Shown: piece by piece, positions 9,048 to 35,062 of the stretch
Numbering within the stretch: position 1 is the first letter of the stretch
How the letters are laid out: each line of letters opens with the position of its first letter
NCBI RefSeq assembly: GCF_003018255.1
Contig: NZ_CP027440.1
Strand: one strand, 5' to 3'
DNA from: Escherichia coli
GTDB taxonomy: Bacteria; Pseudomonadota; Gammaproteobacteria; Enterobacterales; Enterobacteriaceae
Length of the DNA stretch: 64,000 nucleotides
Position numbers and translations under genes: made by a program
The notes under the pieces: generated by a model
Seen by the model: the letters and a program-made list of their open reading frames with translations, nothing else
Databases searched by the model: none
What the model was told of the DNA's origin: nothing

Positions 9048-9376
9048 GCCATCACATGGATCGAGGGTGGGATAATTCCAGTCAGCGAAATTTTACCGTA
9101 GGCTATCTGTTATTTGATTCTGTGGCGTGATAGCCGCCAGACACCACTGATCTCGTCACTCATTCCCCAATCCCGGCGAGAATGTGGTTATTTACAGAGC
9201 TAAAAAATGAATAAAAAAATAGAGCCTGTCGACATCCGCCAGACTCTACAGTACACACAGCAGTGCATCCTCGTCTTAAATCCGGCCTGGGGTCCTGGTG
9301 ACCGGTGACAGTGTTATAACGGTTTTACCCATCCGTTGCCAATTTTCTTCAGTGACAGATTTCACGAAAATATAAG

Positions 9377-14839: not shown

Positions 14840-15072
14840 TGAGATCCCGTTATTTTTATCAATTTTTGTTGCTATCCGATCGCAAAAAAGCCACGTCATA
14901 TGATCAGATAATTCTGATAATGATAGACGCTATTTAACACTTCACACGGTTTGTATATGGAAAAGCATTTTGCTTTTTGTATTCAATTTAGACAGAATTT
15001 TATTAATCATTTCAGGGTAATGGGGTGATGAGATGTTGCGTAACAGGGCCAGAAGGCTAGACTACAAAATAA

Positions 15073-16077
<1,005 letters not shown>

Positions 16078-16351
16078 CAAAAGCAATTTTCCCGGCTGTC
16101 TGTATACAAAAACGCCGCAAAGTTTGAGCGAAGTCAATAAACTCTCTACCCATTCAGGGCAATATCTCTCTTGCAGGTGAATGCAACGTCAAGCGATGGG
16201 CGTTGCGCTCCATATTGTCTTACTTCCTTTTTTGAATTACTGCATAGCACAATTGATTCGTACGACGCCGACTTTGATGAGTCGGCTTTTTTTTGCCTGT
16301 TATTTGTCAGCGTCTACCCTTTAAGAGTCCACCCAATGACCGGAGGGAAAT

Positions 16352-16525
16352 ATGACGACACTTATTTATTTGCAAATTCCTGTCCCTGAACCGATTCCTG
16401 GCGATCCTGTTCCAGTGCCCGATCCGATCCCTCGCCCGCAACCCATGCCTGACCCACCACCCGACGAAGAACCGATTAAATTGTCGCATCGTGAGCGTAG
16501 ATCTGCGAGGATACGCGCCTGCTAA
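16352..16525 (+). CDS. hypothetical proline-rich small protein (57 aa)
   Basis: ATG preceded by a GGAGGG Shine-Dalgarno at 16342-16347; sequence MTTLIYLQIPVPEPIPGDPVPVPDPIPRPQPMPDPPPDEEP...; below the 60-aa cut-off of the ORF track. Confidence 0.4.
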   Translation: MTTLIYLQIPVPEPIPGDPVPVPDPIPRPQPMPDPPPDEEPIKLSHRERRSARIRAC

Positions 16526-16554
16526 CTTTGCGTCGATGACCACGAGAATAGATT

Positions 16555-17928
16555 GTGACCGCTTTTTCTACCCTGAATGTTTTGCCTCCCGCCCAACTCA
16601 CGAACCTTGATGAGTTGGGTTATTTAACCATGACGCCGGTGCAGGCCGCCGCGCTTCCGGCGATCCTTGCCGGAAAAGATGTTCGCGTGCAGGCGAAAAC
16701 CGGCAGCGGCAAAACGGCGGCTTTTGGCCTCGGCTTGTTACAGCAAATTGATGCGTCGCTATTTCAAACCCAGGCTTTAGTGCTGTGTCCTACGCGTGAA
16801 CTGGCGGATCAGGTGGCAGGTGAATTGCGTCGGCTGGCGCGTTTTCTGCCAAATACCAAAATTTTGACGTTGTGCGGTGGTCAACCGTTCGGTATGCAGC
16901 GTGATTCGTTGCAACATGCGCCGCATATTATCGTGGCAACGCCGGGCCGTTTGTTGGATCATCTGCAAAAAGGCACGGTATCACTGGATGCGTTGAATAC
17001 GCTGGTGATGGATGAGGCCGACCGCATGCTGGATATGGGATTTAGCGATGCCATTGATGATGTCATCCGTTTTGCGCCAGCATCTCGACAGACGCTTCTG
17101 TTTTCGGCAACCTGGCCGGAAGCCATCGCCGCAATCAGCGGACGAGTGCAACGCGATCCTTTAGCGATTGAAATTGACTCAACAGATGCTCTGCCACCTA
17201 TTGAACAACAATTTTATGAGACATCCAGCAAAGGCAAAATTCCGTTGTTGCAACGGTTATTAAGTTTGCATCAGCCATCCTCTTGCGTGGTGTTTTGCAA
17301 TACCAAAAAAGATTGCCAGTCTGTCTGCGACGCGCTGAATGAAGTAGGGCAAAGTGCATTGTCGTTACACGGCGATCTGGAGCAACGCGATCGCGATCAG
17401 ACCCTGGTACGTTTTGCTAACGGTAGCGCCCGTGTACTGGTCGCGACTGATGTTGCTGCGCGTGGTCTGGATATAAAATCGCTTGAGCTGGTGGTGAACT
17501 TTGAGCTGGCGTGGGACCCTGAAGTTCATGTACATCGCATCGGTCGTACAGCTCGTGCAGGAAATAGCGGTCTGGCGATCAGTTTCTGTGCCCCGGAAGA
17601 AGCACAGCGGGCCAATATCATTTCTGACATGTTGCAGATAAAACTTAACTGGCAAACGCCGCCAGTTAATAGTTCCATTGTGCCGCTGGAAGCAGAAATG
17701 GCAACGTTATGTATCGATGGCGGGAAAAAAGCCAAAATGCGCCCGGGTGATGTATTAGGTGCGCTGACAGGAGATATCGGGCTTGATGGCGCAGATATTG
17801 GCAAAATCGCCGTGCATCCGGCGCATGTCTATGTCGCGGTGCGTCAGGCTGTTGCTCATAAAGCATGGAAACAGTTACAGGGCGGGAAGATTAAAGGAAA
17901 AACGTGCCGGGTGCGGTTATTAAAATAA
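16555..17928 (+). CDS. dbpA: ATP-dependent RNA helicase DbpA (DEAD-box, 23S rRNA-specific)
   Basis: 457 aa, GTG start, motifs AKTGSGKT, DEAD and SAT present. Confidence 0.9.
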   Translation: MTAFSTLNVLPPAQLTNLDELGYLTMTPVQAAALPAILAGKDVRVQAKTGSGKTAAFGLGLLQQIDASLFQTQALVLCPTRELADQVAGELRRLARFLPNTKILTLCGGQPFGMQRDSLQHAPHIIVATPGRLLDHLQKGTVSLDALNTLVMDEADRMLDMGFSDAIDDVIRFAPASRQTLLFSATWPEAIAAISGRVQRDPLAIEIDSTDALPPIEQQFYETSSKGKIPLLQRLLSLHQPSSCVVFCNTKKDCQSVCDALNEVGQSALSLHGDLEQRDRDQTLVRFANGSARVLVATDVAARGLDIKSLELVVNFELAWDPEVHVHRIGRTARAGNSGLAISFCAPEEAQRANIISDMLQIKLNWQTPPVNSSIVPLEAEMATLCIDGGKKAKMRPGDVLGALTGDIGLDGADIGKIAVHPAHVYVAVRQAVAHKAWKQLQGGKIKGKTCRVRLLK

Positions 17929-20595: not shown

Positions 20596-20796
20596 TCACG
20601 AGGACTGAAGTTTCTCGCAATTAAAATTTATCAGTTTTACTTTCTGCTCTCTGGAAACGCCTGCTTCTTTTTTACCTGAGAGCATTTTTTCGCATTCTGA
20701 TTTAGTTAGTTTATATTTTGAATATCTTGTCCAGTTAGTAGGAGTGCCACCTTCCTTTTCAATAGTGGCGGTAATTTTATACATGAACACCTCCAT
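20596..20796 (-). CDS. rcbA: Rac prophage protein RcbA (YdaC)-like
   Basis: ORF 20596..20856; contains MYKITATIEKEGGTPTNW...; exact start is ambiguous (Met at 20796 or 20784). Confidence 0.5.
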   Translation of the reverse strand: MEVFMYKITATIEKEGGTPTNWTRYSKYKLTKSECEKMLSGKKEAGVSREQKVKLINFNCEKLQSS

Positions 20797-34697: not shown

Positions 34698-35004
34698 TGA
34701 ATAAATCCTTTAGTTATTTTATTTGCCTTTTATCCCCATTTCGGGGAGTGAAAACATCCTAAAGGAGAAGTTCAGTTAGCCGATAAATATCATTTGTTAC
34801 GCCTTAAGTAAAACCTTAATCAAATAATTCTACGGAAATGATAATAAGTCTGGTGAATGTATTGAAGATAATACATACAAAATAAAAATTATACTTTTAA
34901 TTTGCTATACGTTATTCTGCGCGGGTTATATGCCTTTATTGTCACAGATTTTATTTTCTGTTGGGCCATTGCATTGCTACTGATTTTCCAACATATAAAA
35001 AGAC

Positions 35005-35035
35005 AAGCCCGAACAGTCGTCCGGGCTTTTTTTTA
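35005..35035. terminator. hairpin plus T-run downstream of ydbK (bidirectional appearance)
   Basis: AAGCCCGAACAGTCGTCCGGGCTTTTTTTTT, flanked by A/T runs on both sides. Confidence 0.45.
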
Positions 35036-35062
35036 GAATTGGATAATCCTTATCCAGTGCAT

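Follow-up and report, generated by a model that had tools for sequence, protein, structure and literature searches.

The Escherichia coli K-12 gene ynaL (b4743) encodes a proline-rich protein of 57 amino acids, the exact sequence of which was listed by VanOrsdel et al. 2018 (PMC6001520). YnaL was detected in LB cultures by chromosomal SPA tagging and immunoblotting, it was noted as an unidentified positive in a ribosome-profiling screen with tetracycline inhibition, and its discoverers suggested that ynaL forms an operon with dbpA (PMC6001520). This 2018 discovery paper is the only main text naming YnaL that was found in a literature search, and it assigns the protein no function (PMC6001520). 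The literature search found no paper on the function, a partner, or a phenotype of YnaL, and no description of the control of dbpA expression.

Several other described systems share features with ynaL. The leader-peptide systems SecM-secA and TnaC-tnaA resemble it in having a short ORF just upstream of a weakly initiated gene, a conserved C-terminal peptide, and a polyproline pause motif; polyproline motifs such as PPP are associated with EF-P-dependent pausing. The SgrS/SgrT and Spot 42/SpfP systems resemble it in that a regulatory sRNA (here FnrS) and a small-protein ORF are same-strand neighbors. The alternating X-Pro tract of YnaL, expected to form an extended polyproline-II rod, is similar to the acidic or basic tract of the TonB spacer (Pfam PF16031 TonB_N), and YnaL also bears some resemblance to the PRP-motif antimicrobial peptides, which bind the ribosomal exit tunnel. 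In the account presented here, which is held with considerable confidence, an ORF of the window (the whole 64,000-nucleotide stretch of E. coli DNA that was analyzed) is the known, translated gene ynaL, its peptide would itself be the selected product, and its 3' third would overlap an element linked to dbpA.

The ORF at 16352-16525 on the plus strand is the known E. coli small-protein gene ynaL (b4743), as indicated by the ORF list, the RefSeq annotation, Pfam, and the comparison with K-12. The K-12 MG1655 counterpart is annotated in RefSeq at 1409308-1409481 (YP_009518775.1) and occupies the same zntB-fnrS-ynaL-dbpA-ttcA position, and the two proteins are identical at 57 of 57 residues (100%). 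The coding sequences are identical at 173 of 174 nucleotides, the sole difference being synonymous (C at 16465 here, T in K-12). Apart from this base, K-12 ynaL differs only at the first base of the Shine-Dalgarno (SD) sequence, which reads AGAGGG in MG1655 and GGAGGG here (A versus G at 16342); a further intergenic difference from K-12 lies at 16306. The protein also matches the Pfam family PF23677 ("Protein YnaL-like") over its full length, with residues 1-57 aligned to profile positions 1-57 at 136.9 bits against a cut-off of 27. A 501-nucleotide query around the ORF matched 5392 of 5426 complete E. coli genomes, each of them in one place, with no second copy. Among the matches listed, the ORF carries the label "ynaL: proline-rich small protein YnaL" or "protein YnaL" in every complete E. 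coli genome.

The physical description given in the original prediction was accurate. The 57-codon ORF begins with ATG and has exactly the sequence quoted; the GGAGGG motif lies ahead of it on the plus strand at 16342..16347 (positions -10 to -5), with the same hexamer or a close variant in all genera aligned; and the Pro/Asp/Glu-rich tract is present as residues 10-41, PVPEPIPGDPVPVPDPIPRPQPMPDPPPDEEP. The ORF does lie between zntB and dbpA, though the fnrS sRNA in the interval between zntB and the ORF had gone unnoticed. The label "unannotated-looking," in contrast, was wrong, because the gene has a name and because the epitope tagging and ribosome profiling proposed as checks had both been published in 2018 with positive results (PMC6001520). 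The ORF is annotated as ynaL/b4743, has a Pfam family of its own (PF23677), and has been known since 2018. As a finding, the observation of ynaL is ordinary and adds nothing: the gene, its name, and its translation have been in the databases since that year.

The coding status of ynaL was examined in 34 distinct loci fetched from Escherichia, Salmonella, Citrobacter, Enterobacter, Klebsiella, Lelliottia, Silvania, Pseudocitrobacter, and other genera; with the copy in the window, 35 loci entered the codon analysis. The reading frame, whose conservation across the Enterobacteriaceae had been proposed as a further check, is intact in all 35 loci and in more than 10 genera. Between D18 and A56 (39 ungapped codons), the first, second, and third codon positions contain 13, 13, and 28 variable sites, and pairwise dN/dS values against E. 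coli are 0.03-0.19 at dS of 0.55-1.7. The intact frame, the third-position excess, and the low dN/dS together show that ynaL is a real coding gene, and together with the published detection the frame conservation supports the predicted genuine, translated small-protein gene with a strong SD. Short ORFs are abundant in this region (46 of at least 30 amino acids in the 4 kb around ynaL), so that the size of the ORF alone is not beyond chance. The probability that ynaL is a chance ORF in the spacer between fnrS and dbpA, and not a gene, is nevertheless negligible, given its conserved frame, SD, and codon-position pattern and the published detection of the protein (PMC6001520). Length variants among intact family members are in frame (e.g., an 11-codon deletion in E. 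coli E69, locus L009, and a 10-codon duplication in Salmonella enterica, P0053), and variation in the length of the X-Pro repeat probably arises from slippage between repeated CCN-GAY-CCN units. Frameshifted or disrupted copies of ynaL occur in a few strains (P0137 and P0134, which are listed with the length variants).

The order of genes on the chromosome in the window is dgcM, ynaN, zntB, fnrS, ynaL, dbpA, and ttcA. The first of the small genes in this series, ynaN (b4773), is a recently added small-protein gene, annotated in RefSeq, with an ORF of 15 residues (48 nucleotides including the stop codon) at about 15033-15080 on the plus strand, just upstream of zntB. The zntB gene itself, which encodes a zinc transporter of the CorA family, extends from 15094 to 16077 on the plus strand in both the ORF list and the RefSeq annotation, and a CorA-family gene is found upstream of ynaL in every locus examined that extends far enough upstream. 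Between zntB and ynaL lies fnrS (b4699 in K-12), at 16173..16294 on the plus strand including its intrinsic terminator (Rfam RF01796, 134.8 bits, 16173-16290). A terminator scan places the terminator stem on the plus strand at 16267-16286, followed by a run of 8 T. The terminator is strong, its end lies about 55 nucleotides before the ynaL ATG, and the ORF begins 61 nucleotides past the end of the Rfam match. The possibility of a dual-function sRNA was rejected, as the ORF is not within mature FnrS and starts after its terminator. Unlike SgrS/SgrT and Spot 42/SpfP, ynaL is thus outside the sRNA, 34-70 nucleotides downstream of the FnrS terminator.

The association of ynaL with fnrS is constant. 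In every tested locus that extends far enough, fnrS lies 34-70 nucleotides upstream of ynaL, and it is directly upstream also in Kosakonia, Mixta, Erwinia, and Phytobacter. Across the Enterobacteriaceae and Erwiniaceae, fnrS and ynaL are inseparable neighbors on the same strand, even at loci from which dbpA is missing or has been relocated. Given this inseparability, read-through of the FnrS terminator could be the means by which ynaL is expressed, which would place it under FNR control; the proline-rich protein would then perhaps be made anaerobically. Transcription of ynaL may occur by such read-through or from a promoter of its own. A sigma-70 scan of 15900-16800 found no promoter, and hence none between fnrS and ynaL.

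A conserved box, TCTACCCT, lies on the plus strand at 16313..16320, between the fnrS terminator and the ribosome-binding site of ynaL; it was recognized in a DNA alignment of 15 genera and in the Kosakonia and Phytobacter loci. In the loci where the spacing was counted, the box is found 16 nucleotides after an invariant TTGCCT, and it could be either a weak promoter or an anti-SD sequence. The whole arrangement (16293-16320) consists of TTGCCT at the end of the fnrS terminator T-run, a variable spacer of 16 nucleotides, and TACC(C/T)T, and is the same in L037, L038, L040, and L045; the spacing is different in Citrobacter sp. R56 and Mixta. Such an arrangement may be promoter-like with a poor -10 element, or it may provide an anti-SD CCCU able to pair with the AGGG of the ynaL SD.

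Downstream of ynaL, dbpA occupies 16555-17928 on the plus strand in the ORF list and the RefSeq annotation, and its GTG start codon is 29 nucleotides past the ynaL stop codon. The dbpA initiation region (16543..16557, plus strand) comprises a weak SD-like CGAGA at 16543-16547 and the GTG at 16555-16557. In every Enterobacteriaceae locus of the genome scan, the gap from the ynaL stop codon to the dbpA GTG is 14-29 nucleotides, with only the weak CGAGA ahead of the start; over a wider set of loci with dbpA downstream the gap is 14-62 nucleotides. The gene order is different in other lineages. In Mixta (L041, L042), Phytobacter (L045), L038, and L047, zntB-fnrS-ynaL is followed by a convergent ttcA with no dbpA between them, and hairpins resembling terminators were read downstream of ynaL in L038, L041, L045, and L047. 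In Erwinia (L043, L044), ttcA lies between ynaL and dbpA.

These arrangements bear on the proposal that ynaL is only a cis-acting leader of dbpA, in which ribosomes pausing at D-PPP-D in an EF-P-dependent manner, or at the conserved C-terminus, would set dbpA translation and the peptide would have no function. The short gap to a weak GTG initiation site in the Enterobacteriaceae, the flanking of the PPP motif by Asp (Pro-Pro-Pro codons 35-37, 16454..16462 on the plus strand, a candidate EF-P-dependent pause site), the location of the strongest conservation in the last 40 residues (roughly as many as the ribosome encloses), and the operon suggested by the discoverers (PMC6001520) are all consistent with such a leader. 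However, the linkage of ynaL to dbpA is not obligate: unlike the ORFs of SecM-secA and TnaC-tnaA, ynaL persists with an intact proline-rich core in Mixta, Phytobacter, L038, and L047, none of which has dbpA adjacent to it, and ttcA intervenes in Erwinia. Because the core is kept under selection in the loci where dbpA is not adjacent, ynaL is not merely a dbpA leader. The candidate arrest motif is also not universal: 30 of the 35 loci have PPP, and 5 have PSP or PPQ. Conservation of the C-terminal RSARIRAC reflects constraint on the nucleotide sequence, and as a peptide the tail is dispensable and can be removed by an early stop codon. In addition, no sequestration of the dbpA initiation region is predicted, leaving the locus, in contrast to SecM-secA and TnaC-tnaA, with no supported mRNA switch structure, and SPA-tagged YnaL accumulates to detectable levels (PMC6001520). 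A pure dbpA-leader role for ynaL is accordingly rated unlikely.

The alternative favored here is that the YnaL peptide is itself the selected product. A profile search of 1.84 billion representative proteins matched only 34, and the named members of the family belong to the Enterobacteriaceae (including Kosakonia, Phytobacter, and Scandinavium) and to the Erwiniaceae genera Mixta and Erwinia. Within the Enterobacteriaceae, almost no variation is seen in the core DPvPxPDPIPRPQPMPDPPPDEEPIK(L/M)SH or in the tail RSARIRAC. More distant members keep the proline-rich core only, and their tail is either cut at PIKLS(H)R or swapped for ...DPxPI(I/L/V/T)DPPPH(R/M). The N-terminal 10-17 residues vary in both sequence and length and are the least conserved part of the protein; in some genera the N-terminus is polar (e.g., MQKSLLAS or MHTSHLLH). 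The acidic (X-Pro)n core, DPVPVPDPIPRPQPMPDPPPDEEP (residues 18-41; 16403..16474, plus strand), was delimited from the protein alignment, the codon table, and dN/dS; it is retained in the Erwiniaceae and is under purifying selection with normal synonymous wobble. The conserved unit is therefore the acidic X-Pro core beside fnrS, and neither the N-terminus nor the basic tail, which narrows the options for function.

All 16 prolines of YnaL fall within residues 10-41, where they make up 50% of the stretch, and the protein has a charge dipole, residues 1-41 carrying a net charge of -6 and residues 42-57 one of +5. An AlphaFold2 model contains no helices or strands (pTM 0.22), and no sequence match to any PDB chain was found. 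The N-terminus had been described in the original prediction as hydrophobic and the protein as possibly periplasm-spanning. A short hydrophobic run does exist, but it is only about 9 residues long and is broken by prolines, and the best 19-residue Kyte-Doolittle window reaches 0.63; there is no stretch with the length of a membrane helix. Reading the YnaL sequence by eye revealed no signal-peptide features. Given an N-terminus that varies among genera and lacks the length needed for a membrane helix, the periplasm-spanning role is unsupported. From these features, YnaL is concluded to be a soluble, extended peptide, predicted to be of the polyproline-II type, and not a membrane-anchored one that spans the periplasm.

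The same features weigh against an envelope peptide in which a hydrophobic anchor would carry a rigid, TonB-like polyproline rod across the periplasm. The alternating X-Pro tract resembles the proline-rich spacer of TonB, and weak profile matches are obtained (NCBIfam, E = 2.9e-4; Pfam TonB_N, E = 0.68). These matches, however, involve only the low-complexity tract and fall far below the cut-offs (20.8 bits against 315 for NCBIfam NF008084, and 11 against 33 for Pfam TonB_N). Unlike TonB, YnaL has neither a membrane anchor nor a C-terminal TonB domain, and the resemblance is compositional only; with an N-terminus that is polar in some genera, a TonB-like rod is extremely improbable.

A very small probability is likewise assigned to the suggestion that YnaL is an endogenous proline-rich peptide directed at the ribosome, in loose analogy to the PRP-motif antimicrobial peptides, and functionally linked to the 50S assembly helicase DbpA. 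YnaL does contain a PRP motif within its X-Pro repeat, and its gene lies beside that of a ribosome-assembly helicase. Yet the proline-rich part of YnaL is acidic and not cationic, only the tail being basic; no PDB chain matches its sequence; the gene persists where dbpA is not adjacent; and there is no experimental hint of such an activity. From the analysis as a whole, it is rather probable that the peptide itself is the selected product, that it would most likely act in the cytoplasm, binding or regulating some larger partner as a polyproline-II type peptide in the manner of other bacterial small proteins, and that it is not a membrane or periplasm-spanning protein.

The 3' end of ynaL is constrained in a different manner from the core. 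At every amino-acid-invariant position in codons 18-40, two to four synonymous codons are in use. Block A (CCGATTAAATTGTCGCATC; 16472..16490, plus strand) consists of codons 41-46 and the first base of codon 47 and encodes PIKLSH, and each of its codons is represented by a single codon in 32-35 of 35 loci. Block B (AGATCTGCGAGGATACGCGCC; 16499..16519, plus strand) consists of codons 50-56, encodes RSARIRA, and contains an SD-like GAGGA; here a single codon is found in 33-35 of 35 loci, and the codons so fixed include the rare AGA, AGG, and ATA. Invariance in both blocks extends to four- and six-fold degenerate sites in more than 10 genera. When only amino-acid-invariant codons are considered, 8 of the 10 in codons 41-46 and 50-56 have one codon in all 35 loci, whereas all 8 in codons 18-40 vary synonymously (2/10 versus 8/8 varying; Fisher p = 0.001). 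Ascertainment does not explain the invariance, because the loci were retrieved with degenerate patterns from which block B was left out.

Block B is conserved where it is not translated, and both blocks are found together with dbpA. The L048 ORF terminates at ...CAT CGT TAG, and a 100% identical block B lies untranslated beyond this stop codon; in Kosakonia cowanii (L037) and in L040 block B is also untranslated, with 1 mismatch. Mismatches in block A number 0-3 in Kosakonia, L040, and L048. Blocks A and B are both absent in all loci that lack dbpA directly downstream. In one of these, L047, block A has diverged although the peptide still ends in PYKLSRV. Block A lies 79-84 nucleotides from the dbpA start in all 16 taxa measured, despite a stop-to-start gap of 14-62 nucleotides. 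The GAGGA of block B lies 46 nucleotides before the dbpA start, and GCGAGGATA of block B resembles the SD region of dbpA, (A/G)CGAGAATA. Because block B is conserved where untranslated and both blocks track dbpA, they are constrained as nucleic acid. Rare-codon pausing at AGA, AGG, and ATA was rejected as the cause of block B invariance, since untranslated copies of the block are just as well conserved.

This nucleotide-level constraint points to a cis element linked to dbpA, and the basic tail RSARIRAC would then be largely a translation of that element. Somewhat more tentatively, blocks A and B may together regulate dbpA, the ribosome-assembly helicase gene, as a cis element not previously described, with the YnaL peptide as a separate, FnrS-linked product. 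The blocks might serve as a binding site for a protein or an sRNA, or as a ribosome standby or re-initiation site around the SD-like GAGGA. In the Enterobacteriaceae, ynaL would be the first cistron before dbpA, its 3' third overlapping the dbpA-linked element, and ribosomes ending ynaL could pass to dbpA by coupling or re-initiation. Because translation of ynaL ends 14-62 nucleotides before a weak GTG or TTG site, such feeding of ribosomes to dbpA is probable. Judged from sequence comparison, there is about an even chance that the last third of ynaL performs this double duty in the Enterobacteriaceae, with blocks A and B in the dbpA upstream region, ynaL probably feeding ribosomes to dbpA, and the basic tail largely a by-product. 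The nucleotide constraint on the ynaL 3' end that tracks dbpA is the one point in this analysis that may be new, and a defined element of 50 nucleotides offers a direct handle for mutagenesis.

Several more specific roles for the blocks were considered. An RNA structure in which blocks A and B occlude the dbpA start was unsupported by tests of folding, covariation, and accessibility. The leader folds no better than shuffled sequences by minimum free energy (z = 0.07), and the RNAalifold consensus (-9.6 kcal/mol), which pairs GUCGC with GUGAC of dbpA and GAAGAA.CG with CG.CUUUUUC, contains 0 compensatory pairs. In silico masking or shuffling of the blocks in 16 taxa left the predicted unpaired probability of the dbpA initiation region unchanged. 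These folding results also give no structural backing to translational coupling of ynaL and dbpA. A mimic of 23S rRNA hairpin 92, which lies in the region targeted by DbpA and through which DbpA might regulate its own expression, found no support in the sequence: when the leader is aligned locally to 23S rRNA, the scores fall below the shuffled null, and the hairpin 92 neighborhood ranks 10th for block A and 92nd for block B among 572 windows. Pairing of FnrS with the ynaL-dbpA mRNA gave duplex energies weaker than those of random windows of the same size, a crude comparison in that RNAduplex gives full-length duplexes.

Searches for known elements gave similar results. No Rfam family matched 16291-16620 at E values up to 10, and inspection of blocks A and B by eye found no conserved sigma-E, sigma-28, sigma-32, or sigma-54 motif. 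Block B does contain a candidate CsrA site, also read by eye, in which a GGA is presented in the loop of a GCG/CGC hairpin. The site lacks a neighboring second GGA, its stem is disrupted in K. cowanii, and the literature search found nothing linking CsrA to this candidate; a CsrA site in block B is given a low probability.

Other reading frames across ynaL were also considered and rejected. A 78-amino-acid antisense ORF at 16307-16543 on the minus strand is a mirror artifact, its first codon position falling on the variable third position of the sense frame, a pattern that shows it is free of selection; the encoded sequence is rich in Gly, Trp, and Arg, derived from the antisense of CCN codons. 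The overlapping +1 frame lacks a conserved start, and the +2 frame is interrupted by a TAA within block A. A ynaL-dbpA fusion produced by frameshifting or read-through was rejected because the relative frame and the gap vary among genera and stop codons intervene.

Elsewhere in the window, further Rfam matches are found at 9211-9306 (minus strand), 20600-20778 (plus), 34922-35042 (plus), 61608-61671 (minus), and 62231-62382 (minus). They correspond to McaS, RalA (an sRNA antitoxin), MicC, RydC, and the sok antitoxin RNA, all of which are known E. coli sRNAs; RalA belongs to the Rac prophage.
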